This document shows positions 2,037 through 59,245 of a stretch of DNA of 64,000 bases, piece after piece. This stretch comes from Ignavibacteria bacterium (GTDB lineage Bacteria; Bacteroidota; Ignavibacteria; Kapaibacteriales; Kapaibacteriaceae). Both the position numbers and the translations under genes were made by a program. The stretch lies in NCBI GenBank assembly GCA_947495975.1, contig CANMBE010000002.1, positions 89,192 through 153,191 on the forward strand, read 5' to 3'. Below the pieces are notes generated by a model, which was not told the DNA's origin, did no database searches, and saw nothing but the letters and a program-made list of their open reading frames with translations. How positions within the stretch are numbered: the stretch's first letter is position 1; every line of letters begins with the position of its first letter.

Positions 2037-2091
2037 ACTCAACGTTGGAATAACTTTACGATGTCAAATCATTCTACATTTTGTAGAATTG

Positions 2092-3284: not shown

Positions 3285-3304
3285 GTACTGAGCTGAATCA
3301 TCAC

Positions 3305-12017: not shown

Positions 12018-12059
12018 GAACACGTACCACTAAAGTCGATGAAGAAGGAGAGCGTAAGC

Positions 12060-15305: not shown

Positions 15306-15320
15306 GTTTTCGTCCTTCCG

Positions 15321-41849: not shown

Positions 41850-43775
41850 CTAGCTTTTGAAGTCGGGCTCAGCGCTACGGGAATCTCTGCTAGTGGGGCA
41901 ACGGTCGGTAGGTCTGTGAAGTGTTGGGATTACCAATACATCGGCTCCACCAATATCAATTGTTACGTCATCCCGTTGAAGCGATACACCAGGCAAGACA
42001 GATGTGTATTGAAGGCTTGGAACTCGTGAAAGGGGCAATCGAACCGTACGCGAAACGCTAGAGATGTTTACAACAACAAGGATGCCGCACCTCGATCCAG
42101 GTAAACGTCTAAGAAACGCCACTACCTCTATATCATCAACGTCGAGACTTTCAATCGAATCGATGTCGCTCAATTGCCGAAGCACATTGAACGCAGCATA
42201 TTTCTTAACCTTCTCTTGAATCCACAGAGCTGTATCGATTCCCTCCTGCCATGGCAAGGGAGAATCGCTGAACAGTGCTAGCTTTTCCGGAGGATAGGCA
42301 TCCATCATTTCTTGAGTGAATCCGAGTCCGGTATTCACTGGTTTATCGTCATTAAGTTCAAGACCAGCGTGAAGTATGGAAAGTCCATGAGGGAGAAATC
42401 TCAGAAACAACAATAGCGCAATTCCTGCGCGGGGAGACATACGTGATGCTGCACGTTGCGTATTGTGAGACTCAGGAGCTGCGAAAAAACGTATGGGAAT
42501 ATCACCACGCGAAACACGCTCCACAAATGACGTCAGCTTCTTCGCATCATGAGCATCAAACGGAAGATATCCTACAACAGCATCATACCCCGCAGTACGT
42601 GATGAAGCCTCTAGTAGAAAATTCTCTTCAAGCAAGATGAAGTTAGGCTTTACGGTGCGACTCTCAGTGATTATCCGAGAACGAAGTTCCGATGGAAGCG
42701 CATGCCCCATGTCTATCATTGCTCCGTCAATACCGAACATCCGAATGTAGTGTGGTATGATTCCTGCAATAGTATTCCACAGCGAGGTTTGTCTGTAGGA
42801 AGGTTGGTCTAGCTCTCGCTCAAACATCCGAATGGTGTTATACGCCATATATCGGAATGAGGGATGGTCATGCATTCGCAAATACGTAACGTCTGACCAA
42901 GCCGGCTGCGGGTCATCTGGCGGCCAATCAGCGAATGCACCGGGAATGCGCAATACTTTGCCGCGTGCTCCTATGCCCTTCCAACCACGTTCATCTTTCT
43001 CTACACGCAGAGGCATGTGATCAAAGAGCTGTTGATACTTTTCTGCTGGTGCTGGTAGATCAACGTATACGGAACTCTCAATCATCGAATGCATCTCTGC
43101 AAGTGCATCTGGAGTGAAGACTGGTGAGCGGAATGAATCCATGGAACCAATCTGCTTTTCATCAACCCAATAGAACCATTCTGGGTGACCGTGCACGAGA
43201 TCACTGTCAATGCTTGCAGTGCGCAGAACAACTTCGAGAATGACCTTCATACCAAGGAGGTGACACGTTTCAACGAGCACACGTGCTTGATCATCAACAG
43301 ACATGTCAATGTTTGACTCAGCAAGATGTGGGTCAAGTCGAAACGGGTGTTTTGCAGCATACGGAGAACCAAGTGTTCCCTTTCTTCCAACGTCACCAAT
43401 CTCCGTTATTGGCAACAACACAAGTGTGTCAACACCGATGCCTTTCAAATAAGGCAGGAGCCCCATAAGCTTAAGAAAGGTGCCCGTTGATTTCCATCCA
43501 TCATTAACGGTGCCTTCACCGTGGTTAAAGGACGTTACATGTCGCACCATTCCGTTGTACGCTACAGCGCGCTCCAACGTCCACGTCCGCTGGTGGTCTC
43601 TACTTCTCCTGATGGTATCAATACGGCGAAGTTGATGCAACAAGTAAGAGGCACCCGAGTGAAATGTCACATCGGTATGCGCCCCTACCCAAGCGCCAGG
43701 CACGCTATAGGAATGCCACGTAGCATGTTCTTGTTCTTCCAAGAGTCCAATCAGTTTTCGCAGGAGAGGCGTCAA
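41850..43775 (-). CDS. glycoside hydrolase family 13 (alpha-amylase superfamily) protein, cytoplasmic
   Basis: GTFLKLMGLLPYLKGIGVDTLVLLPITE matches the GH13 region-I neighbourhood. No signal peptide. Confidence 0.65.
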   Translation of the reverse strand: MTPLLRKLIGLLEEQEHATWHSYSVPGAWVGAHTDVTFHSGASYLLHQLRRIDTIRRSRDHQRTWTLERAVAYNGMVRHVTSFNHGEGTVNDGWKSTGTFLKLMGLLPYLKGIGVDTLVLLPITEIGDVGRKGTLGSPYAAKHPFRLDPHLAESNIDMSVDDQARVLVETCHLLGMKVILEVVLRTASIDSDLVHGHPEWFYWVDEKQIGSMDSFRSPVFTPDALAEMHSMIESSVYVDLPAPAEKYQQLFDHMPLRVEKDERGWKGIGARGKVLRIPGAFADWPPDDPQPAWSDVTYLRMHDHPSFRYMAYNTIRMFERELDQPSYRQTSLWNTIAGIIPHYIRMFGIDGAMIDMGHALPSELRSRIITESRTVKPNFILLEENFLLEASSRTAGYDAVVGYLPFDAHDAKKLTSFVERVSRGDIPIRFFAAPESHNTQRAASRMSPRAGIALLLFLRFLPHGLSILHAGLELNDDKPVNTGLGFTQEMMDAYPPEKLALFSDSPLPWQEGIDTALWIQEKVKKYAAFNVLRQLSDIDSIESLDVDDIEVVAFLRRLPGSRCGILVVVNISSVSRTVRLPLSRVPSLQYTSVLPGVSLQRDDVTIDIGGADVLVIPTLHRPTDRCPTSRDSRSAEPDFKS

Positions 43776-45631
43776 GGGGCCACCTCCCGCGCGAGGTAGT
43801 GATCATGAATCTTTTTCGCAATCGCTTTACCAACAACATTTTCTAATACTGATAGCGGAGATGACCGAACTTGCTCAACCGATCCAATCACTGACAAGAG
43901 TTTCCTGGCTGTTGTTTCTCCAACGCCCGCGATATCCGTAAGCTCTGTGCGGAAGGTGCGTTTATCACGAAGTGTGCGATGATATCGAACAGCAAATCTA
44001 TGCGCTTCGTCTCGCGCTTGTTGTAATAGTCTGAGACTGCTAGAGACCTTTGGCAGGTAGAGTGGCGTTGTGCTTCCTGGAATGAACACTTCCTCGAGGC
44101 GCTTTGCGAGTCCGATGACCGTAAATGAACTCACAAGATTCAATTGTGAAAAGACTTCCATAGCGTGCGAAAGTTGACCCTTTCCACCGTCGATGATAAC
44201 CAGATCTGGAAGTTCTGTTCCTTCGTCAATAGCACGACCATATCTGCGCGTGATCACTTCCTTCATCGCCTCAAAGTCATCATTGCCTTCAACGGAGCGA
44301 ATCTTATAGTTCCTGTATTCGGATTTTTTTGGTTTCCCATCAACAAAAACAATCATCGACGAAACGTAGTCAGTTCCCTGGATGTGGGAATTATCGAAAC
44401 ATTCGATGCGTCTCGGCAGACGATCCATCCGTAGGTCTTGCTGCAAGGACATAACGGCACGAGGAACTGCCTGATCCTTGGTGGCTTGTTGCGTGAGCAA
44501 CTCACGAAGCAGCACATCAGCATTCATTTCAGCCATGGCAAGCAATTTGCGTTTGTCCCCAATCTTTGGAACAATGATCTCGACGGTCCTTCCACGTTTT
44601 TCTTTGATGAATTCTGCCAGCGTCTCTACGTCATCATATTCACATGGGATAAGCACTTCATCTGGGAAATGTTCTGCCTCAATGTACCAACGCTCTACTG
44701 CTGTTCGCACAATCTCTTGGTCATCTTGTTCACGCGAATTACTGATAAAGTAATGTCGCTTCCCTACGAGCTTGCCATCACGAATGATAAAGACCACCAT
44801 ACACGCCATGCTTTCAGCACGTGCAAGCGCAAAAACATCACGGTCAGCTTCGTCATTCGCCAATACTTTCTGTTTCTCGGTGTATTCTCTGAGGCGAAGG
44901 AGTCGCCCCCGAACAATTGCGGCATCTTCAAAGCGTAGTTCTTCGGCTAGAGACATCATACGTTCTTCGAGTTGACGCTCAAGGTCTCGTGTTCGCCCAT
45001 TGAGTACTTGTTGTGCCTGGCGAATGTACTCGTTGTATCGCTCCTGCGTTATGTGTGCCTGGCATGGACCTTCACACTTTTTTATGTGGTAGTCTAAGCA
45101 CACTTTCCAGCGTCCGGCAGCAATCGATGCTTCTGTGAGAGCTAGATCGCACGAACGCAGAGGAAAGATTGACCGCAATGACTTCATCAACGAGTAGAGG
45201 TACGTGCCATCTGTGTAGGGGCCAAAATACTTGCTACCGTCGCGCACTACACGCCGTGTCTTAAAGACCCGTGGATACTCTTCCTTCGTGATGCGGATGT
45301 ACGGATAAGACTTATCGTCCTTCAGGAGGATGTTGTACTTCGGACGGTGTTCCTTGATAAGAGTGTTCTCAAGGATCAGTGCTTCAACCTCTGTGTCAGT
45401 GACGATGACCTCGATGTCGGCAATCTTCCGTACCAAAGCCTTTGTCTTTGCGTCAACAGGGCGACCCATTTGGAAATAGGATCGGACGCGATTGCGAAGA
45501 CTCTTTGCTTTTCCAACGTAAATGATTTGCCCATCCACATCCTTATGCAGATAGACCCCCGGCTTGGTAGGCAGGCCGGATATCTTCTTCAACAAGGCGT
45601 CTGAAAGAAGGGTTAGGTCGGTTTCCATCAC
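43772..45631 (-). CDS. uvrC: excinuclease ABC subunit C
   Basis: GIY-YIG (GVYLHKDVDGQIIYVGKAKSLRNRVRSY), UvrBC and RNaseH-like/HhH domains. Confidence 0.95.
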   Translation of the reverse strand: MMETDLTLLSDALLKKISGLPTKPGVYLHKDVDGQIIYVGKAKSLRNRVRSYFQMGRPVDAKTKALVRKIADIEVIVTDTEVEALILENTLIKEHRPKYNILLKDDKSYPYIRITKEEYPRVFKTRRVVRDGSKYFGPYTDGTYLYSLMKSLRSIFPLRSCDLALTEASIAAGRWKVCLDYHIKKCEGPCQAHITQERYNEYIRQAQQVLNGRTRDLERQLEERMMSLAEELRFEDAAIVRGRLLRLREYTEKQKVLANDEADRDVFALARAESMACMVVFIIRDGKLVGKRHYFISNSREQDDQEIVRTAVERWYIEAEHFPDEVLIPCEYDDVETLAEFIKEKRGRTVEIIVPKIGDKRKLLAMAEMNADVLLRELLTQQATKDQAVPRAVMSLQQDLRMDRLPRRIECFDNSHIQGTDYVSSMIVFVDGKPKKSEYRNYKIRSVEGNDDFEAMKEVITRRYGRAIDEGTELPDLVIIDGGKGQLSHAMEVFSQLNLVSSFTVIGLAKRLEEVFIPGSTTPLYLPKVSSSLRLLQQARDEAHRFAVRYHRTLRDKRTFRTELTDIAGVGETTARKLLSVIGSVEQVRSSPLSVLENVVGKAIAKKIHDHYLAREVAP

Positions 45632-45707
45632 CGCAAAGGTACCGCAATTCGTGCGACCTCATTGCACGGCGCGTATATTGTGCAAGGTTCACAATGGGAG
45701 GTTCTTC

Positions 45708-47024
45708 GTGCAGCAGGAAACGGACGTCATACACTCCATTGAGGAGATAGCCAAGCAGCTTAAGGATGCTGCGTGGTTCATTGGTCAGCGAGTGATCAAC
45801 AGAGAAGAGGTTATTGAGCAAGCGTTTTGCGCGCTCCTCACTGCAGAGCACATTCTACTTCAAAGCAGAACAGGCGCAGGAAAATCGCTTTTGGCCGAGC
45901 AGATATTCAGCATGTTCGAGGGCTCGCGTCTGTTTCGAGTGCAGGCAAGTAAAGAGCAACAACCCGATACGTTCTTTGGCGGACTCGATCTTGAAGAACT
46001 CAAGGCTGGACGCATCATACACAATACCAAGGGCTCACTTGTTGAGAGTGACTTTGGTTTCATTGATGAAATTTTTGACGCCAATGATTTTACGCTTCGA
46101 GCTTTGCTATCACTCCTTAATGAACGCCGCCTCTTGCGTGGTCTACAAGATGTTGCCTCCCCACTTCACTCTGTGATCGCAGCCACCAACTACCTGCGTG
46201 TGAGCGAAGTAACAGAAGCACTTCTCGACAGATTCCTTTTCAAAGCCGTTATCCTACCAGATAAAGACCCCTTTATCCAGTATCAGATATCACAGCGATA
46301 TCTCATCTACGGAGGGAAGACAGCTGAACCCGTGAAGCGTATTCCGCTGCTTCGACTGCAGCACATGCATAAGATCATTACCGGTAGAAGTGCTGACTTT
46401 CAGATTTCGATTACCAATGAATTGTTGTACTTCACCAACATCGTGATCAGACACTTTGAGTTCTTGCGCAACAGACAGCTGAGTGAACATGCTAAACGAG
46501 GTGATGGAGTAGACTTCTACATTTCACCGCGTACCCAGGCAAAGTCTCTCGATCTGTTGCGTGCATTGGCTCTGTTGAAGGGGCGCACCAATGTTGTGCA
46601 TGACGATGTGAGTCAGCTCTACTTCATCTTTGCCACTGTTGGCCTTCCGGAGGAGGTGGCGTTGTTCAAGAAGGCATACACAACGGTGTTGAATTCACTT
46701 ACTGCCTCTCGTGGATTTGACCAAGTGACAATCTTGTTGGACTTCACAGAGCTGCTACGGGAGATCAAGGAGAATCCGAAGCTCATGTTGGAGCCCCTTT
46801 CCAAGTTTGCAGACTCACCAGTGCGTCGCTCATTCCTAGACTGGGTGAAGGAGAAGTTTAGCAGCGAACAACCGAGGGATCAGAATCGCAAGGTACTTGA
46901 GGCATTCTTGTTGGATTTTGTGCCCGTGTGCGACGAAGTGCGTGAACTGAAGAATTCTGTTGAAAAATCGCTGCAGCAGACGATGATAATTGCTGAGCGT
47001 GAGCTCCAACGACTCAAAGCATAG
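45708..47024 (+). CDS. RavA/MoxR-like AAA+ ATPase
   Basis: Walker A SRTGAGKS, Walker B FGFIDEIFDANDFTLRALLSLLNERR (close to the RavA FLDEI...LLTAINER pattern), sensor IAATN and ALLDRF. A probable GTG start has GGGAGG 6 nt upstream. Confidence 0.6.
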   Translation: MQQETDVIHSIEEIAKQLKDAAWFIGQRVINREEVIEQAFCALLTAEHILLQSRTGAGKSLLAEQIFSMFEGSRLFRVQASKEQQPDTFFGGLDLEELKAGRIIHNTKGSLVESDFGFIDEIFDANDFTLRALLSLLNERRLLRGLQDVASPLHSVIAATNYLRVSEVTEALLDRFLFKAVILPDKDPFIQYQISQRYLIYGGKTAEPVKRIPLLRLQHMHKIITGRSADFQISITNELLYFTNIVIRHFEFLRNRQLSEHAKRGDGVDFYISPRTQAKSLDLLRALALLKGRTNVVHDDVSQLYFIFATVGLPEEVALFKKAYTTVLNSLTASRGFDQVTILLDFTELLREIKENPKLMLEPLSKFADSPVRRSFLDWVKEKFSSEQPRDQNRKVLEAFLLDFVPVCDEVRELKNSVEKSLQQTMIIAERELQRLKA

Positions 47025-47027
47025 GGT

Positions 47028-48584
47028 ATGTCGCGCTCGTCCATCGAACTTTCATCATTCTTCTCCAGCATGGAGCAGTATGGGTTCTTTGACACCGTTG
47101 AGAAACATTTGCCTGAGGAGTTTACGATCATCTATGAGATTGCGCGAATCCTTGAGGATAAAACGCATTCAATTTCGCGAGCAATGGCTCCTATTCTAGA
47201 ATTGAATGATCCGTCAACAGCCGAGAATGCGCTTGATCAGATATTGATTCCAAACATTCCCGAGGCAAAAGAATTTGAAGCAGATCTTATTCGCAGTGTG
47301 ACGGACGTGCGCTATATCTATCCTGCGCAGCATCTGTTGCCCGAGATTGTCTTCTTACGTCGGTTAGCCGAGCGGTCTTTGTGGATGCCACGTGCACGCT
47401 CACCACGAAACTACCGTTATCAAACAGAAAGCGATCGCTTTGCACCTGACGATCGAAAGCAAAAGGTGTACATCCTTTTTGATACATCAAGCTCGATGCG
47501 TCAGAACTATCGCATTCATTTGGCAAAGGCAATTGTTTATTTGTTCTTGCAGCAAAACCAGCGCGAGCTTGGCACAATTTTCTTCAGAACGTTTGATCTT
47601 ACTGTTGGGCCACTACGGACAGCGCGAGACGTGCCTTCGTACGATAGTCTTATCAGCGATGTGATGCACATCAACGCCATTGGAAACGGCACCGTGCTAC
47701 AGAAAGCACTGCAAACAGCTGTAGATGACATTGCTCATGAAAGTCAACTAAGTCATGCACAGATCCTTGTAGTAACCGATGGTGTAGCGCATATTGATCT
47801 CGACAGACTTCGCGAGCAAATGGGAGACCAGATTACAGTGAACACCGTAAAGATCGGTCATGCACGGATGCATATTGATGCAAAAGTGATCGAGGACCAG
47901 GTCTTTCAGTCATCGAGTGATGAAACCGTGCGGTTACGGGAATTAGTGAAGCAAAAGCGCGACTTAGAGCTCCAGATATCTACTGCCGCTGGACATTTAC
48001 GTCAAGAAGCACTACGTTCTCAACTCGGTGTGATTCTACGTCAGATTGAGTCGCTCACTGAGCGGCTTGGGAGTTTTGTCTCTGAGCACTATGGGCTTGA
48101 GATTCAAAAGCTAAGCACCGTCTACGTAAACGTGGATGACATTTCGCCTGAAGAGATGTTCTCTTTGCCCGAAGAGAAAGTTTCTGAACTAGAAGACCTC
48201 GCCGAGTCACTTCTCAAAGCACTCCGCGAAGAACGTCAAGTAGAAGACATCAAGAGAGCCGCCGTGCTCTACGATCATTTGATGTTGCTCATGAAGTATA
48301 ACAAGGTGGATGCATCACGCTTTGACAAGGCGGCAAAAGAACTAGAGCAAATGCTTGATGCAATCCTTAACAAACCCACATCGGGCGTAGACGACATGTC
48401 GATCAGCGACCTCGAGCGAATTCAACTAAGAAACATGCTCGATTCAGGCAGCTTTAGCAACTCCTTCTCACTGGCACGTATCCTTCGTCTGCTCTGGGTA
48501 AAGGGTACACGCTGGTGGCTCGGACGCAAGCAGTTCAAAACGTTTAGAGCGATAACAGGGAAGAAGATTCAGAGGAGAACGTAG
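47028..48584 (+). CDS. ViaA-like von Willebrand factor A protein with a coiled-coil C-terminus
   Basis: MIDAS DTSSSM ... NGT ... VVTDG. The start lies 4 nt after the ATPase stop. Confidence 0.6.
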   Translation: MSRSSIELSSFFSSMEQYGFFDTVEKHLPEEFTIIYEIARILEDKTHSISRAMAPILELNDPSTAENALDQILIPNIPEAKEFEADLIRSVTDVRYIYPAQHLLPEIVFLRRLAERSLWMPRARSPRNYRYQTESDRFAPDDRKQKVYILFDTSSSMRQNYRIHLAKAIVYLFLQQNQRELGTIFFRTFDLTVGPLRTARDVPSYDSLISDVMHINAIGNGTVLQKALQTAVDDIAHESQLSHAQILVVTDGVAHIDLDRLREQMGDQITVNTVKIGHARMHIDAKVIEDQVFQSSSDETVRLRELVKQKRDLELQISTAAGHLRQEALRSQLGVILRQIESLTERLGSFVSEHYGLEIQKLSTVYVNVDDISPEEMFSLPEEKVSELEDLAESLLKALREERQVEDIKRAAVLYDHLMLLMKYNKVDASRFDKAAKELEQMLDAILNKPTSGVDDMSISDLERIQLRNMLDSGSFSNSFSLARILRLLWVKGTRWWLGRKQFKTFRAITGKKIQRRT

Positions 48585-48597
48585 GGCCTCCCCCTAC

Positions 48598-49944
48598 TCA
48601 AACATCCTTAGGCACTACACTCGCTCTTCCAACAGAGTGATATTCAAAGCCATCTGCTGCCATGTCTTCGAGATCATACATGTTGCGACCATCAAAGATT
48701 AAGGGGCGCATGAGCAGGCTCTTCATACGCAGTACGTCGGGTTTGCGGAATTCATTCCACTCGGTGGCAATAACCAATGCGTCCGCTCCATCAATAGCGT
48801 CGTACGGTGATGTTGCATACGTTACACGCTCGCCAAGGACGCGGCGTGCAGATTCGCGGGCTTCAGGGTCATAAGCGTGCACAACGGCGCCGGCTGAGAG
48901 CAATGCTTCGATAATGACAAAGGCTGGCGCCTCGCGGACGTCATCAGTGTTAGGCTTAAACGATAAGCCCCATACCCCTATGATTCGTCCACTGAGGTTG
49001 CCGTCGAACCGACGGAATATCCGATCGATAAATCGCAGGACCTGGCGGTCGTTAACGTGTTTTGATGCTTGAACAATTTCTAGTGGAGCGCCTGCCTCAT
49101 TTGCTGCATGGATGATGGCCTTTACGTCCTTGGGGAAACAGCTACCGCCATATCCGATTCCGGAAAAGAGAAATCGCTTCCCTATCCTACCGTCGGTCCC
49201 AATACCTAGTCTGATTTTTTCAATATCAGCGCCAACTGTTTCGCAATATTCTGAAAGATCGTTCATGAAGGAAATCTTGGTAGCGAGATATGCATTAGCA
49301 GCGTACTTCGTTACCTCAGCACTCTTTTCGTCGAAGATTAAGATAGGCGCGCCGCCACGTACGAATGGTTCGTAGAGCTCCTTGAGAATTTCTGCTGCGT
49401 AGAGGCTTGATGTACCAACCACAACGCGGTCAGGCTTCATAAAGTCGTCAACGGCAAAACCCTCGCGAAGGAATTCTGGGTTGCTCACTACGTCAACCCG
49501 TCGCTCAGGCGCAACGGATGCAAACACCGCAGCTACCCGGCTGGTTGTACCAACTGGAACGGTGCTCTTATTGATAACAATGCGAGGCTGTGTGATATTG
49601 TGTTCATTCAAAAGCTCGCCTACGCGGTGGGCTGTTGCCATCACCTGCTCTAGGTCTGCTTGTCCGTCTTTGCCCGGAGGTGTAGGCAGACAGAACATGA
49701 GTATCTCGCATGTGCGTATGGCCTGCGACAGGTCAAGCGAAAACGTAATACGCTTTTCGCGAATGTTACGCTGGAGCACTACCTCCAGGCCAGGCTCATA
49801 GATCGGGATGTCTCCCTTGCTGAGGCGCGAGACTTTTTCTGGGTCTACGTCGATACAGAGAACTGTATTGCCGACATCGGCTAGGCATGTTCCGGTGACT
49901 AGACCAACGTACCCCGTACCGATAACGGCTATGCGATAAGACAT
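48598..49944 (-). CDS. ugd: UDP-glucose 6-dehydrogenase
   Basis: IAVIGTGYVGLVTGTCLA Rossmann fold and a catalytic Cys region (GYGGSCFPKD). Confidence 0.9.
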   Translation of the reverse strand: MSYRIAVIGTGYVGLVTGTCLADVGNTVLCIDVDPEKVSRLSKGDIPIYEPGLEVVLQRNIREKRITFSLDLSQAIRTCEILMFCLPTPPGKDGQADLEQVMATAHRVGELLNEHNITQPRIVINKSTVPVGTTSRVAAVFASVAPERRVDVVSNPEFLREGFAVDDFMKPDRVVVGTSSLYAAEILKELYEPFVRGGAPILIFDEKSAEVTKYAANAYLATKISFMNDLSEYCETVGADIEKIRLGIGTDGRIGKRFLFSGIGYGGSCFPKDVKAIIHAANEAGAPLEIVQASKHVNDRQVLRFIDRIFRRFDGNLSGRIIGVWGLSFKPNTDDVREAPAFVIIEALLSAGAVVHAYDPEARESARRVLGERVTYATSPYDAIDGADALVIATEWNEFRKPDVLRMKSLLMRPLIFDGRNMYDLEDMAADGFEYHSVGRASVVPKDV

Positions 49945-49983: not shown

Positions 49984-50163
49984 TCAGAGTTCACGAATAA
50001 CGTACCGAACCACAAAGATGAGGATGAGTAAGATGGCTACCAAAATGCCAAGCTTTACAAGCCGCTTTATTATGGCAAGAAGCAGGAGAATTCCTAGTGC
50101 AACCACTGCAAACTTGCCAAGTGGATGTAGCCCTGTATAAAGAATTGTTAGGTCTTGTATCAC
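49984..50163 (-). CDS. 59-aa predicted 2-TM mini membrane protein, coupled to the tonB stop (GTGA overlap)
   Basis: Hand translation: (M)IQDLTILYTGLHPLGKFAVVALGILLLLAIIKRLVKLGILVAILLILIFVVRYVIREL. Below the ORF-track cutoff. GTG start. Confidence 0.3.
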   Translation of the reverse strand: MIQDLTILYTGLHPLGKFAVVALGILLLLAIIKRLVKLGILVAILLILIFVVRYVIREL

Positions 50164-50915
50164 GAGTTTTTGAACACGAATGTAATAGTGCCTTCCATCT
50201 CAACGCCTGATGAAAGCTTGTTGAACCGCCATTGTTTTAAAACGCGCATTGCCTCTTGATCAACAATAGGGTTCCCACCCTTTCTCACTGGCCAAACCAA
50301 ACTAACGGATCCGTCAGACAGCACTCGGAATTTGAGCTTTACGGCTGTATTCATCGTGCCAGGAGGGAATTTCGGCAGAACTCGGCTTACTACAGTGCGG
50401 TTGCCACCTCCACCCCAGTCGATGGCCTCGTTACCTAAGCCCTTGCCTGTGCCAGTACCTACCCAACCTAGACCGGAAGCATCATCTTTTCCATCTGTGG
50501 TGCCAACGGTCCTATCTGCAGCCTCACCTTCATGCGGTTTTCCATCCTTGCCAATGTTCTTGGCCGGAATGAGTTTCGCCGATTGAGTTGGGTCGGTCTC
50601 GCGGACTTTTCCCGATGAAGAAGCTGATCGCTGCGCATCTTCCAACGGATTTTGTGTTTCTTTCCCGCGTTGTGAGGCCCCTTCCCGTGAGAGATTCCCT
50701 TTGCGTCCACCTGTGCCATCTCCTTCACCAAAAACCATTAGCTCAAAAGGCGTTGTCCTTCGCGAGCTATATGGTTCAGGGGGCGTATAGCGTGTACACA
50801 TGGATACCAAGAGCACAATGGCCATGATGATTGATGCCGCAATAAACCCTCGCACCGCATTCGGATTCCATTCGAAGCGGAGCTGAACTGAAGGGATATC
50901 GTGATATCGACTCAT
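50160..50915 (-). CDS. TonB-family energy transducer
   Basis: N-terminal TM, Gly/Pro-rich linker and TonB C-terminal domain (AVKLKFRVLSDGSVSLVWPVRKGGNPIVDQEAMRVLKQWRF). Confidence 0.6.
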   Translation of the reverse strand: MSRYHDIPSVQLRFEWNPNAVRGFIAASIIMAIVLLVSMCTRYTPPEPYSSRRTTPFELMVFGEGDGTGGRKGNLSREGASQRGKETQNPLEDAQRSASSSGKVRETDPTQSAKLIPAKNIGKDGKPHEGEAADRTVGTTDGKDDASGLGWVGTGTGKGLGNEAIDWGGGGNRTVVSRVLPKFPPGTMNTAVKLKFRVLSDGSVSLVWPVRKGGNPIVDQEAMRVLKQWRFNKLSSGVEMEGTITFVFKNS

Positions 50916-51685
50916 CGTACGCGTGCAATCCAAGGTTGTCGAAAACCAAGATTAACGGCAGCGGCCTCGGCACCTTCGCGCGTTGGAAATTGACCAAATC
51001 GAACTCTGAACCACGGCTGACCGCGCAGTGTTTGTTCAACGATGTATCCATCTTGAACTCGTTTTTCTCGCAATGTCTGTAGCCATTCATCTGCATCGTC
51101 GCGTGATGGACTCGAAAACACCTGCACTACCCACAATGCATTCGCTGTTGACGCTGCGGGTGTGGTCTTAATCTCGGCTGGCCTTGCCACTGGTTTTGCT
51201 GCAACTTCGATGGGCTCAGCAGTAGCAATTTTGACTGGCGTTGGTTCGATGGGTTTTGCGGCGCTCGGATGAGGTGTAGAGGACTTTGACACTGGTACTG
51301 GCTCTGTAAACAGTGGCTCTATTGCTGTATCTGCCAGTGCCGGAACGTGCTGCGTTACGGTTGTATCGGTCTCTCCAAGAAGAGGTTCAGCAACGTCTTC
51401 TACAGGTGCAAAGAAGGCTTGGTCTTCAACGGACGGCTTCGTGACGAAGTAGAACCCTCCACCGAGCAGTGCGCTAAGCAGAATAATTCCTGCGGCAACA
51501 CTGACCCAGAACATTGGCTTTCTTCGTTTTTCTTGTTGAGCTAGTGGCGGCAAGGCATTTACGGCCTCTACCCGCAAGCGCTCAGGCGCTTCGGTTGGCT
51601 CTGAGGATATTGACTGCTCAGACATGAATCCCTGTTCTTCAGGTCCAAAGCCAGTATCGTCCCACGTAGGATCTTTAGGTTCCAT
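50912..51685 (-). CDS. SPOR domain (peptidoglycan-binding) membrane protein
   Basis: One TM, then a C-terminal SPOR-like domain (WVVQVFSSPSRDDADEWLQTL...FRVRFGQFPTREGAEA). Confidence 0.55.
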   Translation of the reverse strand: MEPKDPTWDDTGFGPEEQGFMSEQSISSEPTEAPERLRVEAVNALPPLAQQEKRRKPMFWVSVAAGIILLSALLGGGFYFVTKPSVEDQAFFAPVEDVAEPLLGETDTTVTQHVPALADTAIEPLFTEPVPVSKSSTPHPSAAKPIEPTPVKIATAEPIEVAAKPVARPAEIKTTPAASTANALWVVQVFSSPSRDDADEWLQTLREKRVQDGYIVEQTLRGQPWFRVRFGQFPTREGAEAAAVNLGFRQPWIARVR

Positions 51686-51687
51686 GA

Positions 51688-53283
51688 TCAGAACTTCCAG
51701 GTACAACCAGCAGTGATAAAAATTCCCCGCTCACGATAACCTTCCCACAGAAAGACTGTGCTACCAAGAAGGTTTTCGGCCCGGGCATGTAGGTCAAATG
51801 ATTTCGAAAGAGAACATGAAGCTTTAAGTCGAAGGTCGATATATCCAGCAAGTGTCTTTGAGTTTGCAAAGTCAGTCCATCGTTGTCCTACATAGATCAT
51901 GCCAATTCCGGTTTGAAAAGTTTCTGACCACGTCCTGTCGTAGTGAACGGACGACAATACCGCAGGAATATAGGGTTGAGCTGCTTCTTCTGCGACGGAT
52001 GCGCTCGTCATTCGAACGTCGGCCACAACCACATCACGCGGGGTAACAACGAACCGTGCATCTGCATGCAACTCAACAAGACTGACGGTCCGGTAATCTA
52101 TTGAGAATAGGCCTTGGCGAGACCCCTTCCACACGGCCTCGCGATCTGTCTGACAAATTCGGACACCTACGCTCACTGAAGTTCGCACAGATGGATGATA
52201 CGTGATGGTTCCACGCAGGTCAATGATATCATAGGCCGCATCGAGTCCAACGGAATCATCCACATATTGATTTGCCAACATAAGATCACGAAATGCAATG
52301 GGCCTCATGCCGCTTCTTGCAGTGGCCGTAAAGGTATAATCTGGGCCAAGGAAGAAATCTGCCTGACCACCAAGAGCAAGACCAAAGCGATCTACACCAG
52401 AAGTAGATGTTGCCCATTGAACTCCTGCGCCGCCAGATATTCTCAGCGAACTCGATACCCACCGAGCATATGCACCTGTCTCAACAAATGGATAGGCATT
52501 GCTTGCATAACTCTGCAGTCTCATATCTACCAGCGCTCCTACATCGGCACTCTTCCACTGCTGCTCAACGCGTAAGCCACCGTGCACAACGTTGTCCGTT
52601 ACATCGCGCATGGATGTGGTAGACAGCATCTGGCCTGTCCACGATGCCTGCGCACGATATGTTACATCATCAAATTTTCCCTCTACATCTATGCCCGCAT
52701 TCACGGTTGAATGTTTACGTTCAACGGTATCAGAGCGGGCAAACAATGTATACGAACGATATCGCATTCCTACATCGGCTTGCGTGGTGCTTCCACCAAA
52801 GAATACAAACTTATCGGGCGCTCTGTACGTACTTATCGCACGAACACCTGCTGTGAGATACGATGCGTTGTTCACCCAACCATCACTTGCGTGCACGTCA
52901 CCAGAGAAATCTATACGGTACCTTCCAGCAACAAGTGAGTATCCCGCGTAGAGTTGTGGAGTGATGTAGTTGCCCATCTCCGCTTGGAGATATCCAGGCC
53001 ACATCTGTGCTGAGCGTTGATACTGCGGTAAGGGGCGAGCTGGAAGCACAGGTATTGGCTGCTTCTCTGTCGGATTTAATGAATCAAGGCGAGTAGCAGA
53101 CAGAAGTGGTGGCCGCTGCGGCGATTGTTTTGCACCAGCTCCAACATTGATAAGCTCCTTGCCCATCACGAGGAATTCGGGAAGCTCAAGTGGACCGTTT
53201 GGTGGCTGCGGCATTGGCTGCTGCTGCGCAACAGCAATGCCTAGCGCAAAGACGAATAAGAAAAACAATAGAATGCGTTTCAT
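51688..53283 (-). CDS. predicted outer-membrane beta-barrel protein
   Basis: Signal peptide, alternating amphipathic beta pattern and a C-terminal aromatic residue (..TWKF). Confidence 0.4.
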   Translation of the reverse strand: MKRILLFFLFVFALGIAVAQQQPMPQPPNGPLELPEFLVMGKELINVGAGAKQSPQRPPLLSATRLDSLNPTEKQPIPVLPARPLPQYQRSAQMWPGYLQAEMGNYITPQLYAGYSLVAGRYRIDFSGDVHASDGWVNNASYLTAGVRAISTYRAPDKFVFFGGSTTQADVGMRYRSYTLFARSDTVERKHSTVNAGIDVEGKFDDVTYRAQASWTGQMLSTTSMRDVTDNVVHGGLRVEQQWKSADVGALVDMRLQSYASNAYPFVETGAYARWVSSSLRISGGAGVQWATSTSGVDRFGLALGGQADFFLGPDYTFTATARSGMRPIAFRDLMLANQYVDDSVGLDAAYDIIDLRGTITYHPSVRTSVSVGVRICQTDREAVWKGSRQGLFSIDYRTVSLVELHADARFVVTPRDVVVADVRMTSASVAEEAAQPYIPAVLSSVHYDRTWSETFQTGIGMIYVGQRWTDFANSKTLAGYIDLRLKASCSLSKSFDLHARAENLLGSTVFLWEGYRERGIFITAGCTWKF

Positions 53284-56200
53284 CGGCGCACCTTTTTCAA
53301 TCTCTTGATACGAGCATCTGCAGTCTTGCCATAATCGTCATCTGGTCGAAGTCTGAGAACAACCTCATAAACCGCCGCCGCCTCGTCAAAACGCTTGATA
53401 CTTTCATAACACTCGCCAAGCGCCAGCAGACTAAGTGTATACCAATCTTCGTATCCTGCATATTCTTGCCGCACACGCTCATAATCAGCAATAGCAGATT
53501 CATACTGCTTAGCACGCAAGAAGATTGTTCCTCTATCATACAGCGCATTTGAAACAAACTGTGGTTTGTCAGTTCGCACAGTCAGGAGCGCAAGATGATA
53601 CAGAGCGCTGTCATTACTGCCTATCTTGCGATAGAGCGTTGCAACTTGATATCGTGACTGATCAGCATACTCCGCGCCAGCATATCTGTCTGCTGTTTCG
53701 CGGTACAACATCATGGCACGTGCTGTATCACCGCGCATGCGCGCGGATTGCGCGCGCTCATACCCTGCCTTTGAGGCCGCGTCTGTATCTGCAGGGAATG
53801 TTGTCCAGATAACATCATACAGAGAATCAGCCGATGTAGCATTGGCACTCTTTGTGAAATGCTCGGCAAGATCTAATTTTGACGCAACAATGAAGGGGCT
53901 CTTTGAAAAGCGCTTTTCGATATCAACAAATGCTGCACGGGCTTGTTGCATATCATTCATTGTTAGATACGTTTTTCCCAAAAGGTACAGCGCTTCGTCT
54001 TGGCGCTGCGAAGATGGATAGCGTTTCATATACGATTCAAGCTCAGCAGCCGCATTCGTATAGTTCCGCCCGGAATAGAAGATCTCTGCCTTTTTAAATG
54101 CAAACTCTTCCGCAGAATTTGAATATGGATTTGAGTTTATCAACGTATCAGCAATATCAAGCGCTTCTTGTGTACGCCCCAAACTAAGGAGAGCCCCTTG
54201 CATACTTTTTGCTGCTTCGGATGCGAGTGGGTGCGAGGGATAACGCGAGATTACACTTCTGTACGTAACGAGTGATGCTTCTACATCACCTAGATTAAAC
54301 TGTGCATCGCCGATTGTGTATAGCGCGCGGACGGCTTGGTCGCCATCTGGGTAGGCAACCAGGAGGCGCTGATAATCTTCAATTGCCTTCGCTTCATTAT
54401 GTTGTTGAAATGCGATCCAACCAATAAGATACATTGCATCATCTGCGAGTTTGCTTATTGGATAACGCTGCATAAACTTGCGCATATTTTCAACGGCGCC
54501 TGAGAGATCGCCTGCGCGGTATGAGGCTTGTCCGGCTTGATATGCAGCGTATTGTCCTTCTTCAGACGTGGGCGATGTTGCCGCAGCTTGTTCATATTGC
54601 TCCGCTGCTGCACGAAACTGTCGCAAGATGTATAAGGCATCACCACGTCTAGCAAGTGCTTCTGCAGCGTAGCGCGATGTTGGGAATGAGCGTAAGAGTT
54701 CGCCGAACATTGACGTGGATCGATCAAAGTCTCGTCTACGGAAAAACGTCCACGCCAGCCCATACATTGCTTCTTCTCTGCGCAGACTTGCGGTGAAACG
54801 CTTTACAATTTCATCGTACAGTTCTTGGGCATTCTTGAGCAAGTCAGCACGATACATGGATTCCGCCAACCAGAACGTGGCTTCATCTCTGTGCGCGTCA
54901 TTGGGATGATTGCCAAGAAAATCTGTTAGCGCATTTATCGCTGGTTGTACCTGACCTGCTTGTATGAGACAAATCCCGCGCTTCAATCTGATTTCAGCCA
55001 GGTACATCTGCCGGTCTGAAAGAAACTCATCTGCGGCTTCTTCGGCAATACTTTGAGCACGCTCATAAGCGCTAGCAGCCTTTGACCATTGCTGCATCTC
55101 AATAAGTGTTGCGCCAAGCAAGAGATGTGCACGAATAGATGTTGCTGCATCGCGCGATTCTCTTTCAGCACGTTCAAGTGCTTTGCGTGCACGATCAAAA
55201 TCTTTGGTTTCGTATGCGATTTGACCAAGTTCAATAAGAGCTTGAGCTTGAAACGGATAACCAGCTTGTGAGGCGAGGCTTGTAAAGGCTTTTACAGCCT
55301 CTTCCATCTTACCCACACGATTGAGAACAACGGTGTGATAGAGTAATGCTTGCTGACGAATAGGCGATGCATCGTCTGTGAGGGAATCAAGAATGACTGC
55401 ATAATGATTGAGCGACTTGTCTAGTAACCCAAGCATGAGGGCATCGTAACCCGCATGCAGATGCACATGCCAGCGATATCGGGAGATTGGGTATCGCGTA
55501 ATAAACGTTTCACAACTATCGAGAGCTTCTTGGTAGTTGCGTCGGAGCGTGTATGCTTCTGCGCGCACCAATGCAATTTCTTCACGTGCAGCGTCTACAT
55601 CAATTTGTTTTGCTCCGTTCTCTCTGGCACTGTCATTCAGTAACAGTTCAATTCCTGTTAACACATCAAGTGCCCGCTCAGGACGACGAAGCGAAACGAG
55701 GTCAACTGCTTCTCGAATTCTTGCAGCTACTGATACATTTGATGTGGGATATCTTGTCCGAACAAGACCGAATGAATTGATCGCTTGGTGCACATCTGCG
55801 TTGTGCTCGTATATCTGCCCCATTGCATAATGAGAATACGCTGCGTATTCTCCCAGAGAGTCGGATTTGATGGATGCACCAAAAACATCACGCGCTTCAA
55901 CAAATTGACCGATGCTGGCACGAGCAGCCCCCTCCCAAAAAAATGCTTTGTGTGCCATGGTGATGTAGAAGCTATCGCGCCGTTGTTCAAAAGCAATCAT
56001 CGACTCGCGTGCGCACCAAGCGAACGATTCTGCTGCGGCCTCTGGATCTCCATCTTCAAGTGCAGCAACGGCTCGTTCCATCCACGCAAGCGGCACAAAT
56101 GGCGAATGTGTTCGCTCACGAAGAAAGGCGTCCATTTCTCTGTCCGCACCTGCACGATTGCCAGAGCTCTTCAGAATATCTGCCTTGTCAAAAGGCACCA

Positions 56201-56420
56201 CATCGGCAACGGCGGTATTGCGCCGCGTCTGGTCAAGGATTGCCACATCGGCTGCTGCACGGCGGATCATCCCAGCATCAATAAGGGAACGCACTCCACG
56301 CTCCATGTGTGGAGCTGAGAGGTATGGATATGGGCTAATCTGTGCTACCACACTCGTGCTCAACGCACAAAACATGGCAACAACGATCAACCCGCCGCGA
56401 ATGGTGCCGGGGATTGTCAT
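53280..56420 (-). CDS. large secreted tetratricopeptide-repeat protein (1046 aa)
   Basis: Signal peptide plus dozens of TPR-like A/Y/L periodic repeats. Confidence 0.7.
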   Translation of the reverse strand: MTIPGTIRGGLIVVAMFCALSTSVVAQISPYPYLSAPHMERGVRSLIDAGMIRRAAADVAILDQTRRNTAVADVVPFDKADILKSSGNRAGADREMDAFLRERTHSPFVPLAWMERAVAALEDGDPEAAAESFAWCARESMIAFEQRRDSFYITMAHKAFFWEGAARASIGQFVEARDVFGASIKSDSLGEYAAYSHYAMGQIYEHNADVHQAINSFGLVRTRYPTSNVSVAARIREAVDLVSLRRPERALDVLTGIELLLNDSARENGAKQIDVDAAREEIALVRAEAYTLRRNYQEALDSCETFITRYPISRYRWHVHLHAGYDALMLGLLDKSLNHYAVILDSLTDDASPIRQQALLYHTVVLNRVGKMEEAVKAFTSLASQAGYPFQAQALIELGQIAYETKDFDRARKALERAERESRDAATSIRAHLLLGATLIEMQQWSKAASAYERAQSIAEEAADEFLSDRQMYLAEIRLKRGICLIQAGQVQPAINALTDFLGNHPNDAHRDEATFWLAESMYRADLLKNAQELYDEIVKRFTASLRREEAMYGLAWTFFRRRDFDRSTSMFGELLRSFPTSRYAAEALARRGDALYILRQFRAAAEQYEQAAATSPTSEEGQYAAYQAGQASYRAGDLSGAVENMRKFMQRYPISKLADDAMYLIGWIAFQQHNEAKAIEDYQRLLVAYPDGDQAVRALYTIGDAQFNLGDVEASLVTYRSVISRYPSHPLASEAAKSMQGALLSLGRTQEALDIADTLINSNPYSNSAEEFAFKKAEIFYSGRNYTNAAAELESYMKRYPSSQRQDEALYLLGKTYLTMNDMQQARAAFVDIEKRFSKSPFIVASKLDLAEHFTKSANATSADSLYDVIWTTFPADTDAASKAGYERAQSARMRGDTARAMMLYRETADRYAGAEYADQSRYQVATLYRKIGSNDSALYHLALLTVRTDKPQFVSNALYDRGTIFLRAKQYESAIADYERVRQEYAGYEDWYTLSLLALGECYESIKRFDEAAAVYEVVLRLRPDDDYGKTADARIKRLKKVRR

Positions 56421-56428
56421 CTCTTAAA

Positions 56429-57415
56429 GTGCTGCTATGGCAAATCTACGAAGGCTTCGTGCCCATCGTTGCCCCCAGACCTCGTAGATTTGTACACATT
56501 CCCGACGCAACCAGGACAACTCAAGTGTATCACGCTCTGCTCTACTATGCCTTTGTGCCCATAGACAACCCCGAGGAGTTCGCTAACACCCACCGCGAGC
56601 TCTGCCAGAGGCTTGAGCTTAAGGGGCGAATTTTGGTCTCCACAGAGGGAATCAATGGCACCGTTTCGGGTCCGATTCTGGCCTGCGACCAATACCGTAT
56701 GTCATTGCATGAAGATCAACGATTTTCATCCATGCCCTTTAAGATTGATGAAGTAGATGGGCACATTTTTCAGAAGCTCTTTGTTCGAGTGAAGCAGGAG
56801 CTCGTTACCTTTAGGTCTGATCTGCCAACAGATCCAACGAGGGCAACTGGCAGAAGACTCTCCCCTGCGGAGTGGAAGGAGCGCCTTGAGCGCGGAGATG
56901 CAATTATCTTAGATGGCCGAACGGACTATGAATTCGACATTGGGCATTTCCGGGGCGCAATCCGTCCGGATATTGAGTCGTTTCGAGAATTCCCTCAATG
57001 GATTCGCGAGCACCTCGGTAAAAACAAGGATACCCCCATCTTAACCTATTGCACCGGGGGTATCAGATGCGAAAAGCTCACAGCCTTTATGCTTGCCGAC
57101 GGGTTTAGCAATGTATACCAGCTGGATGGCGGCATCGTAACCTATGGCAAGGACACCGAGACACAAGGGGCTTTGTGGGATGGACTTTGTTACGTCTTTG
57201 ATGAGCGAATAGCCGTGGAGATCAACCATACGGAAGACCGCAGAGTTGTAGGCCGCTGCTTCCACTGCGATTCTTCTACTGAACGATACATCAACTGCGC
57301 TCATCTCCTATGTAATCGTCAACACCTTGTATGTCCGGAGTGTGAAGCACAGTTTTCTCATACCTGCTCCGTAGCATGCTTAGATCGTATCTTGGTTCCA
57401 TATGAATCTCTTTGA
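56429..57415 (+). CDS. trhO: rhodanese-domain tRNA U34 hydroxylase TrhO (YceA/UPF0176)
   Basis: VSTEGINGTVSGP and the rhodanese active-site loop CTGGIRCEK. The start is uncertain; the listed ORF start overlaps the TPR gene. Confidence 0.7.
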   Translation: MLLWQIYEGFVPIVAPRPRRFVHIPDATRTTQVYHALLYYAFVPIDNPEEFANTHRELCQRLELKGRILVSTEGINGTVSGPILACDQYRMSLHEDQRFSSMPFKIDEVDGHIFQKLFVRVKQELVTFRSDLPTDPTRATGRRLSPAEWKERLERGDAIILDGRTDYEFDIGHFRGAIRPDIESFREFPQWIREHLGKNKDTPILTYCTGGIRCEKLTAFMLADGFSNVYQLDGGIVTYGKDTETQGALWDGLCYVFDERIAVEINHTEDRRVVGRCFHCDSSTERYINCAHLLCNRQHLVCPECEAQFSHTCSVACLDRILVPYESL

Positions 57416-58223
57416 ATCAATTCAAGAATCCGTGGCCTTCATTCGTGGTGTTACAGACACGAAGCCGCGCATTGGCGTTATCCTTGGAACGGGGCTTGGT
57501 GGTCTTGTTGGTCAGGTAAACGTCTCATCAACTATCCCTTATGATGAAATTCCACATTTCCAGATAAGTACTGTTGAATCACATCATGGCAGGCTTGTCT
57601 TTGGAAGTTTGAATGGCATTGACATCGTTGTTATGCAAGGCCGGTTTCATGCGTACGAAGGTTATTCACTTCAGCAGATCACCTTTCCTGTAAGAGTCTT
57701 GCATGGGCTTGGCGTACAAACGCTCATCGTGTCCAATGCTTGTGGAGGAATGAACCCGCTCTATAGAAGGGGCGATATTATGCTCATTGATGATCACATC
57801 AATCTGTTGGGCGATAGTCCACTCGTTGGACCAAATGACGAGCGCCTTGGTCCACGATTCCCCGATATGAGTGAGCCGTATTCGCGCCGATTGCTGGGTT
57901 ACGCTGAAGAAGCTGCGCTTGCCAGACGTGTAAAGGTTCACCGTGGGGTATACGTGGCAGTATCTGGTCCCAATCTTGAAACAAGAGCCGAATACAGATT
58001 CTTGCGAACGATTGGAGCCGATGTTGTGGGTATGAGCACAGTACCAGAAAATATCGTTGCACGGCACATGGGAATGGATGTGTTGGGTCTTAGCATTGTA
58101 ACAGATGAGTGCTTTCCTGACTCTTTGGCACCCGTTAAGCTTGAGCATGTGCTAGAAGCAGCATTCCAAGCTGAACCAATCATGACGTCTTTAATTACCG
58201 ATGTGATCGCACGCTGCGCATGA
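57402..58223 (+). CDS. purine nucleoside phosphorylase (PNP-I family)
   Basis: IGVILGTGLG ... SNACGGMNP ... GMSTVPE. Confidence 0.85.
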   Translation: MNLFESIQESVAFIRGVTDTKPRIGVILGTGLGGLVGQVNVSSTIPYDEIPHFQISTVESHHGRLVFGSLNGIDIVVMQGRFHAYEGYSLQQITFPVRVLHGLGVQTLIVSNACGGMNPLYRRGDIMLIDDHINLLGDSPLVGPNDERLGPRFPDMSEPYSRRLLGYAEEAALARRVKVHRGVYVAVSGPNLETRAEYRFLRTIGADVVGMSTVPENIVARHMGMDVLGLSIVTDECFPDSLAPVKLEHVLEAAFQAEPIMTSLITDVIARCA

Positions 58224-59245
58224 TTCGCCCCCTACTCGCCGCATTCCTCTGGGTACTCATCCTCGGTGGATGTGCGCCCACTGAGCCAACCATTACAACG
58301 TTCGTGGACGAGTGGAGATTGCTGTCCGCAGGCCCCAACGGCCTTGCGACGATTACGATGCCCACTGGCATTGTTGCAAATCCATCAGTTTGGGCAGGAC
58401 CAGACGGCACTGTGTTTCCAGTGTCGAAGATCAAGAGATTCAGAGAAGACGTCTACGCCCTGCATTCTTCTCTTCCTTGGATCATCATTTTTGACGCTAC
58501 AACACTGGCACCAAAGGACACGATTGATCTTGGTGGAAACGGCGTGCCTTTCGATATAACATTTCCAAATGCAACCACTGCATATGTGTCGCTTCCCACC
58601 ACAAATGCGGTTGGTATTATTGATCTTACTGTGGGCATGGTAGTTGCTACGATTGACGTTGGTAGCAAATCTGCAGGAATTGCATCAGCTGGTAATCAGG
58701 TTTGTGTGGCACTAACATCTGCAAACGAACTTGCCATCATTGACACGCGAACAAATCTTGTAGAGACTCGCTTACCTACAGATCCCGCACCCGTGTATGT
58801 TGATGCCGATGGACTCAATGCTGTTTTCTGTGTTGTCTGTCTTGGCTCTGGAAAAATTGATCGTGAAAATCCAACGGCGCCAACGATAATATTTGTCTCT
58901 GCCACTTCTCGCACGATCTTAAAGAAGTTGGATATCGCTGGTCGGCCAACCAATGCATCCCTGCAACTACCTCGCGGACTCATAGTCACTGCCAATGAAT
59001 ATGCTTTTGTGCCGGTACAAAATGGCTTGGTACGCGTCAATACACGCACCCGAAACAAGGTAACTGTCATTCAAGTTGATTCGTATGACGCCATTGCCTA
59101 CAATCCAGCACGAGCCGAGATCATCCTGCAGCGCACACTTGATGGTGGCACAGTGTATGATGTGCTCGATGAGTTTGCCGAGAACACAAAGGCATCAAGC
59201 GTGCAGGCAGATTCTTCTTCGTCGATCATAGGAATTGGTCGATGA
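58220..59245 (+). CDS. lipoprotein with YVTN/YncE-like beta-propeller repeats
   Basis: Lipobox ILGGC. Repeated G..DT/..GxxIDxxT blades (YVSLPTTNAVGIIDLT, VCVALTSANELAIIDTRT). Confidence 0.45.
   Translation: MIRPLLAAFLWVLILGGCAPTEPTITTFVDEWRLLSAGPNGLATITMPTGIVANPSVWAGPDGTVFPVSKIKRFREDVYALHSSLPWIIIFDATTLAPKDTIDLGGNGVPFDITFPNATTAYVSLPTTNAVGIIDLTVGMVVATIDVGSKSAGIASAGNQVCVALTSANELAIIDTRTNLVETRLPTDPAPVYVDADGLNAVFCVVCLGSGKIDRENPTAPTIIFVSATSRTILKKLDIAGRPTNASLQLPRGLIVTANEYAFVPVQNGLVRVNTRTRNKVTVIQVDSYDAIAYNPARAEIILQRTLDGGTVYDVLDEFAENTKASSVQADSSSSIIGIGR

Follow-up and report, generated by a model that had tools for sequence, protein, structure and literature searches.

Five genes packed on the minus strand of a Kapaibacteriaceae genome (Ignavibacteria bacterium, assembly GCA_947495975.1) form a conserved cell-envelope module, which we read, with a probability of about 45%, as a Tol-Pal-like tether or constriction system that spans the envelope and not as a nutrient importer. 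The module occupies positions 49984-56420 of a 64,000-nucleotide stretch of contig CANMBE010000002.1 (contig positions 89,192 to 153,191; this whole stretch is called the window below) and encodes, in the direction of transcription, a tetratricopeptide repeat (TPR) protein, an outer-membrane beta-barrel, a SPOR protein, a TonB-like protein and a membrane peptide of 59 amino acids (aa). By means of a TonB-type arm and a barrel that has no plug, it probably joins the inner membrane, the wall of the cell and the outer membrane. Its domains are all known ones; the combination, the family of plug-less boxed barrels and the peptide appear to be new, and no description of the module, the barrel family or the peptide was found in the literature searched.

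The junctions between the five genes, as read from the sequence, are spaced by 0-2 nt throughout. The TPR gene (53280-56420, 1046 aa, ATG start) runs into the barrel gene (51688-53283, 531 aa, ATG start) through an ATGA overlap; the latter is separated by a 2-nt spacer (TGAtcATG) from the SPOR gene (50912-51685, 257 aa when read from the ATG at 51685, with the longest open reading frame, ORF, from a TTG at 51706); a second ATGA overlap leads into the TonB-like gene (50160-50915, 251 aa when read from the ATG at 50915, longest ORF from a TTG at 50933); and the GTG start of the peptide gene (49984-50163, 59 aa) overlaps the TonB stop (GTGA). Independent gene calls on identical contigs returned the same models of 1046, 531, 257 and 251 aa. 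The ORFs bear out the five packed minus-strand genes of an earlier first-pass annotation of this DNA; three of the junctions listed there were right, and that between the SPOR and TonB genes, given as TGAATG, is an ATGA.

The same association recurs in relatives. A species-level scan (one genome per species, profile built from a 9-sequence alignment) retrieved 36 loci, and among those with enough sequence to judge gene order the TPR gene lay upstream of the barrel gene in 27/27, the SPOR gene downstream of it in 29/30 and the TonB gene downstream of it in 28/30, a recurrence that rules out chance adjacency. The co-conservation on which the first-pass annotation had staked its module is therefore found in relatives, and it persists down to 22-30% barrel identity at loci with different flanks (L001, L002); since more distant loci have other genes on either side, it is the unit itself that is conserved. 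Contigs carrying the module are labelled, among others, Acidobacteriota, Hyphomicrobiales, Bradyrhizobiaceae, Didemnitutus or 'Melioribacter roseus P3M-2' (L047, GCA_050258555.1, is one such case), and the discrepancy between these labels of metagenome-assembled genomes (MAGs) and a Kapabacteria/Bacteroidota gene content is likely due to mislabelling or mis-binning. No cultured host of the module was present among the named clusters.

Three architectures were recognised. Type A, to which the window belongs, has the order TPR-barrel-SPOR-TonB, with the peptide added in a large subclade and a UDP-glucose 6-dehydrogenase (UGDH) gene in closer relatives; type B has the order TPR-barrel-SPOR-ExbB/TolQ-ExbD/TolR-TonB and was found at four loci (L038, L045, L046 and L047); type C consists of TPR-barrel-SPOR only. 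Two of the four type B loci were reached by a search that started from the TolQ-like protein and not from the barrel, and as this search led to module loci, the TolQ-like stator orthologue group can be taken to belong to the module. The type B ExbB-like proteins scored 92-95 bits with TolQ vs 53-55 bits with ExbB, both below the curated cutoffs, and the profile assignment of the ExbD-like protein is ambiguous; the clusters of these motor genes carry generic names and are all derived from MAGs. In type B the TonB protein shows the S-x3-H motif in its transmembrane (TM) segment at 4/4 loci and the ExbD protein keeps the TM Asp. Given these motor genes and the S-x3-H motif, the module was probably driven ancestrally by the proton-motive force, and the 'Tol/TonB-like logic' proposed in the first-pass annotation is strongly backed by comparison, as four distant relatives have TolQ/ExbB- and TolR/ExbD-like genes within this operon. 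The coupling to the proton-motive force that it ascribed to the window module itself is not supported in the same way, as the TM segment has no S-x3-H and no motor gene lies nearby.

The TonB-like protein provides the arm. Its C-terminal domain (residues ~165-249, at 50169-50423 on the minus strand) scores 24.6 bits with PF03544, which is just the cutoff value, and 30.6 bits with TIGR01352, above the cutoff of 27.1, and PF03544 is carried by most of the 115 clusters of the TonB-like family. When searched against the PDB, the family profile retrieved the C-terminal domain of Escherichia coli TonB at 5.6e-8 and TolA at 0.03, and the AlphaFold2 model of the domain superposes on TonB C-terminal domains with TMt of 0.69-0.79 and an rmsd of about 2 Å. 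The domain, whose detection by profile the first-pass annotation had considered decisive for its proposal, is hence recognised by both profile and fold, and the modelled structure is that of a genuine TonB C-terminal domain. The protein has a single TM segment, given as residues 23-41 by hydropathy and as a helix at 18-40. The linker (~45-165) is rich in Gly, Ser, Thr and Asp, appears disordered in the model and contains the conserved stretches GDGTG..KGNL and DIDWGGGGNR; a Pro-rich rigid periplasmic spacer is absent from the protein.

The barrel is the presumed partner of this arm in the outer membrane. The 531-aa protein begins with a signal-like segment by hydropathy and ends in ...TWKF, so that the barrel with an aromatic C-terminal residue announced by the first reading of the locus was indeed found, with 22 modelled strands. 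The AlphaFold2 model, obtained with 19 family members (pLDDT 79), places these strands in residues 97-530, and its top Foldseek matches were BtuB (E 1.3e-16, TMq 0.65) followed by OprC, FhuA and others. The window barrel itself has no Pfam match; PF00593, the barrel domain of TonB-dependent transporters (TBDTs), was matched by 6/19 family members, and the Plug domain PF07715 by 0/19 at E<=0.01, which rules out a canonical TBDT identity. The signal peptide is separated from the first strand by only 77 residues, which are disordered in the model and in which the alignment places the strongest conservation seen in the family. The protein is accordingly modelled as a plug-less 22-strand outer-membrane protein of TBDT type. 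At a threshold of E<=1e-30 its family comprises 243 clusters at 50% identity, and all named members are 'hypothetical protein' entries from MAGs.

Two motifs stand out in the N-terminal extension. Motif 1, PLELPEFLVMGKE (53155-53193, minus strand, residues 31-43), in which P31, E33, L34, P35 and G41 are invariant, sits at the position expected for a TonB box and resembles boxes such as [DE]-x-[IV]-V-V-T-[AG]. In the motor-containing relatives it is kept as xLPEFVITG, and in three type C clusters that have no adjacent TonB gene it is degenerate (EEPADLAxRTLNG); this distribution of intact and degenerate forms, drawn from a small sample, goes in the direction that a TonB handle would be expected to show. 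Motif 2, LDSLNPTEKQP (53056-53088, minus strand, residues 66-76, with D67 and N70 invariant), is absent in the motor-containing relatives and is a candidate peptide ligand of the TPR protein.

A link to the cell wall is suggested by the SPOR protein, in which PF05036 matches residues 183-253 (coordinates 50927-51139) at 1.4e-11, in agreement with the peptidoglycan-binding function initially attributed to it. Hydropathy gives a single TM segment at 63-81, and the protein is laid out as a cytoplasmic N-terminus with a conserved TWDDTGF..DGF in the alignment, the TM segment, a low-complexity linker rich in Pro, Ala and Thr, and the C-terminal SPOR domain. It is thus predicted to be a bitopic inner-membrane protein of FtsN-like topology, a layout shared with FtsN, DedD and DamX; it differs from them in the TWDDTGF..DGF stretch, in being encoded in an operon with TonB, TPR and barrel genes, and in giving no match to the FtsN equivalog model, with matches to RlpA and DamX that are only weak. 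The best solved match of the domain was the DamX SPOR domain (2lfv). Among relatives the length of the protein varies from ~200 to >600 aa as the low-complexity linker expands (L001 at 9610-11178, L029, L030, L035-L037 and L043), and in L001 a weak match to a STING ligand-binding domain (8.5e-4, below cutoff) is probably noise.

The TPR protein, finally, was described at first reading as a 1046-aa secreted scaffold, a view with which matches to many TPR families and an N-terminal hydrophobic signal-like segment (hydropathy) without a lipobox agree. The model TIGR02795 (tol_pal_ybgF) reached 282.9 bits in 8 stretches, with a cutoff of 90.1, and the full-length CpoB model scored 110.6 against a cutoff of 383; YfiO/BamD was also matched, and the best natural PDB matches were CpoB (6g5s) and YbgF (2xev). 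The protein is therefore predicted to be periplasmic and to be made of ~8 TPR units of the CpoB/YbgF type. Weak matches to NfrA_C (0.019) and MauE (0.025) were judged to be noise.

The last gene of the module was said in the first-pass annotation to be invisible to the ORF track; it was listed once the ORF minimum was set at >=40 aa, and the 59-aa gene is a real one, as indicated by two findings: it is conserved at some 25 loci, and nucleotide differences at codon positions 1/2/3 number 2511/1111/3471, a pattern of purifying selection. Hydropathy with a 19-residue window gave one segment (38-56), and a second hydrophobic stretch at ~18-32 precedes a KRLVK loop, so that the peptide, judged by eye from its letters, would be a hairpin of two TM helices around that loop. 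It has no match to any family model and is found in the large type A subclade only, being absent from the deeper and from the motor-containing variants.

In the mechanism that we propose, the plug-less barrel would be seated in the outer membrane with its flexible 77-residue extension hanging into the periplasm, where the TonB domain may capture motif 1 by beta-strand augmentation. Both the interaction of TonB with Ton boxes and that of TolA with the N-terminus of TolB are of this kind. The SPOR protein would anchor the complex to peptidoglycan that is denuded and lies mainly at septa, a targeting that passages of PMC12772221 cite as established biology, and the TPR protein may hold the periplasmic parts together as a scaffold that binds extended peptides, for example motif 2. 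The net output would be an outer membrane tied to the wall and to the inner membrane and drawn inwards during division or envelope maintenance. In the variant typical of Kapabacteria the motor genes and the S-x3-H motif would have been lost and the two-TM peptide added, and the arm encoded in the window would either draw its energy in trans from a stator whose genes lie elsewhere or act as a passive tether. There are functional precedents for single parts of this scheme: periplasmic multi-TPR hubs (WthA/LbcA) coordinate peptidoglycan remodelling in division (PMC12772221), and the TonB-like SjdR shapes septal peptidoglycan and does not serve transport (PMC8262864). The Agl-Glt model, in which barrels have unstructured N-termini and a putative TonB box, is a precedent for putting this logic to a use other than transport (PMC9946355). 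In contrast to the module, the genes for WthA/LbcA and SjdR do not accompany those of a barrel or a SPOR protein.

The module would in this way correspond in function to Tol-Pal, with the boxed barrel in the place of TolB-Pal. The two would have in common a stator that in the type B operons scores best to TolQ, a single-pass arm with a C-terminal domain of TonB/TolA type, a partner with a putative N-terminal 'box', a peptidoglycan-binding element, a TPR protein of the CpoB/YbgF type and the organisation in an operon. They differ in several respects: the module has neither a TolB beta-propeller nor a Pal lipoprotein (none was seen in the five proteins or in the window ORFs >=150 aa that were scanned), its outer-membrane partner is a 22-strand barrel, it is an inner-membrane protein that binds peptidoglycan, through its SPOR domain, the C-terminal domain of the arm is closer to TonB than to TolA, the TPR protein is ~8 times the CpoB TPR domain, and the variant in the window has no stator genes.

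A number of points weigh against a tether or constriction system. A SPOR domain indicates peptidoglycan binding but not, as such, a role in division, and TPR units of the CpoB type are generic periplasmic repeats. The reading of motif 1 as a TonB box draws on resemblance and on a correlation in a small sample. A 22-strand barrel without a partner to fill it would be leaky. The scores that set TolQ against ExbB for the type B stator stay below both cutoffs, and the ExbD-like protein is ambiguous; the window module has no S-x3-H and, in 64 kb, no motor gene, so that its energisation is hypothetical. Moreover, every named member of the barrel family is annotated as hypothetical, and its function is a predicted one.

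Among the alternatives, the one that survives best is a TonB-dependent gated channel moving a substrate across the outer membrane, by import or by secretion, which we regard as rather unlikely. The TonB arm would pull on the N-terminal segment of the barrel, acting as a minimal plug, and so open the pore, with the TPR protein as chaperone or receptor. Such a channel would account for the TBDT-type fold and the PF00593 matches, for a TonB-box-like motif located where TBDTs carry theirs and for the ExbB-ExbD-TonB genes in the operon of relatives, and Oar is a precedent for a TBDT in protein secretion (PMC6434023). The module shares with the ExbB-ExbD-TonB system and its transporters (BtuB) the TonB C-terminal domain, the 22-strand barrel, the box-like motif near the mature N-terminus and the terminal aromatic residue. 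Nonetheless, none of the 19 barrels has a Plug domain, and the extension that would have to replace it has 77 residues and is modelled as disordered; the arm is devoid of the Pro-rich spacer and of S-x3-H. The company kept by the barrel is also different from that of a transporter: the module, whose flanks vary and which brings no uptake genes along, is not accompanied by genes for a binding protein, an inner-membrane permease, a SusD-like protein or a regulator, and its dedicated partners are the TPR protein and a SPOR protein, for the co-inheritance of which a transporter has no obvious need. The 'unknown cargo' of the first-pass annotation takes transport for granted; a barrel without a plug, next to a SPOR protein and a TPR protein of the CpoB type, speaks for tethering or division instead. 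Tethering or constriction is favoured over uptake because a TolQ-leaning stator, an arm of TonB/TolA type, a boxed outer-membrane partner, a reader of peptidoglycan and a scaffold of the CpoB type occur together, which we read as the logic of Tol-Pal built from other parts.

A second alternative concerns the window variant in particular and makes of it a passive, non-energised staple between outer membrane, peptidoglycan and inner membrane, in which the TonB-like protein would have lost its coupling to a motor and be stabilised in the membrane by the two-TM peptide. Genes of the MotA_ExbB and ExbD families were found neither in the 64-kb window, as the first-pass annotation had observed for the immediate neighbourhood, nor within 8 kb of related type A loci, and S-x3-H is missing from the TM segment of the window protein and of most type A relatives, as opposed to its presence in 4/4 motor-linked relatives; a canonical ExbBD-TonB set in the window is ruled out by the same two absences. 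The gain in type A only of the peptide and of new Gly-rich periplasmic motifs would likewise suit a staple. The stator could, however, be encoded elsewhere, and deeper type A loci have neither motor nor peptide, so that the peptide did not just take the motor's place. Two of these deeper loci (L035 and L037) show S-x3-N (SLIVN) in the TM segment of their TonB-like protein. Asn can substitute for His20 in E. coli TonB, and for this reason some of the motor-less variants may be competent for coupling. On balance we deem a purely passive staple unlikely.

Export of an envelope polysaccharide by a TPR-plus-porin system of the AlgK/AlgE, PgaA, BcsC or PelB kind was considered in view of the gene that follows the module. 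UGDH (48598-49944, minus strand), which would feed such a system, starts 39 nt downstream of the peptide gene, and a consensus scan found no terminator-like site between the two. The enzyme is probably co-transcribed with the five genes, and a hairpin with a T-rich tail directly past its stop (48571-48594, minus strand), recognised in the same kind of scan, is likely the end of the transcription unit; the number of terminator sites that the scan returned in the window was not above that in shuffles. UGDH follows the module in 20/30 loci, and sugar-transferase and epimerase genes occur near some relatives; together with the translational coupling of the TPR and barrel genes, these are the features that an export system would explain. 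The gene is kept in closer relatives only, though, and is absent next to the module in L001, L002 and the motor-containing type, the TBDT-type barrel has 22 strands vs the 16-18 of the porins, the match to NfrA_C (0.019) is below threshold, no synthase, copolymerase or flippase belongs to the module, and SPOR and TonB play no part in any of the four systems named, so that we hold polysaccharide export to be very unlikely.

Highly improbable, lastly, is kinship with the Agl-Glt 'core complex' of myxobacteria, with the module serving surface motility or the trafficking of surface components, for even if the type B parts match it in a TolQ-like and TolR-like motor, inner-membrane proteins with TonB_C and a large TPR protein of ~1000 aa (PMC3169522), and if Glt outer-membrane barrels have also been proposed to bear a putative TonB box on an unstructured N-terminus with an output other than transport (PMC9946355), the match to the AgmX/PglI tail model NF033768 is weak (24.8 bits, cutoff 40), no FHA domain, adhesin/lipoprotein module or GltA/B/H/K or CglB-like gene is present, the SPOR protein is not a Glt part, and the published core complex was reported in Proteobacteria and Fibrobacter and not in Bacteroidota (PMC3169522); the likeness seen is one of shared domains.

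Transcription of the module may start close to the TPR gene, where TAGATTTG, a -7 box of Bacteroidota type (TAnnTTTG), lies at 56441-56448 on the minus strand, 20 nt 5' of the start codon; a mirror copy of TAGATTTG at 56485-56492 on the plus strand, in the same intergenic region (56421-56530), faces the divergent gene. TAnnTTTG is the -7 consensus of Bacteroidota promoters. The boxes are pattern matches, and the window contains 27 occurrences of TAnnTTTG vs 31.8 in shuffles; further matches directly 5' of gene starts were seen at 6710, 8575, 16162, 23145, 23163 and 45634. Within the module, scans with Rfam and for tRNAs and sigma-70 promoters brought nothing further.

The rest of the window holds genes of other kinds. 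Convergent with ugd, the plus strand (45564-48584) encodes a bpMoxR AAA+ ATPase together with a vWA protein of 518 aa that has a DxSxS MIDAS motif, and such a gene pair also adjoins the module in L004 and L005; a beta-propeller partner was not seen. A LexA-like repressor (HTH_3 and Peptidase_S24, 1269-2036, plus strand), a 349-aa protein without Pfam match whose gene overlaps it (2002-3051, plus strand) and a DnaE-type polymerase III alpha of 1038 aa (3305-6421, plus strand) look like an SOS-inducible mutagenesis cassette of the imuA/imuB-dnaE2 type (1269-6421). Directly upstream of parA/parB (14337-16109) lies a gene for a 2271-aa homologue of SprA (SprA_N 3e-46; 16218-23033, minus strand), the translocon of type IX secretion, whose presence confirms that the chromosome belongs to a member of the Bacteroidota with a type IX secretion system. 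Two larger ORFs on the minus strand (9843-12023, 726 aa, and 41850-43775, 641 aa) and smaller ones at 106-1197, 12060-12788, 12971-13918, 29054-29977 and 58220-59245 had no Pfam match at 1e-6.

How the outer membrane is attached and constricted is poorly known in diderms beyond the Proteobacteria. We put forward tentatively, as a proposal still on the doubtful side, that a large and uncultured branch of the Bacteroidota formed by Kapabacteria and their allies possesses an alternative to Tol-Pal that had gone unrecognised, with a TonB-like arm driven by a TolQR-type stator and pulling by way of a TonB box on a plug-less 22-strand barrel, septal targeting by a SPOR protein and a giant CpoB-like scaffold, from which Kapabacteria later derived a motor-less form with the 59-aa peptide. 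The peptide is in itself a membrane micropeptide that carries no annotation and whose genetic partner is defined. If the module is a tether or constriction machine, pulling on a TonB box would be a general device for mechanical coupling, beyond its use as a trigger of transport, and the variants with a motor, without a motor and without an arm would make up a natural series in which the evolution of such systems may be dissected.

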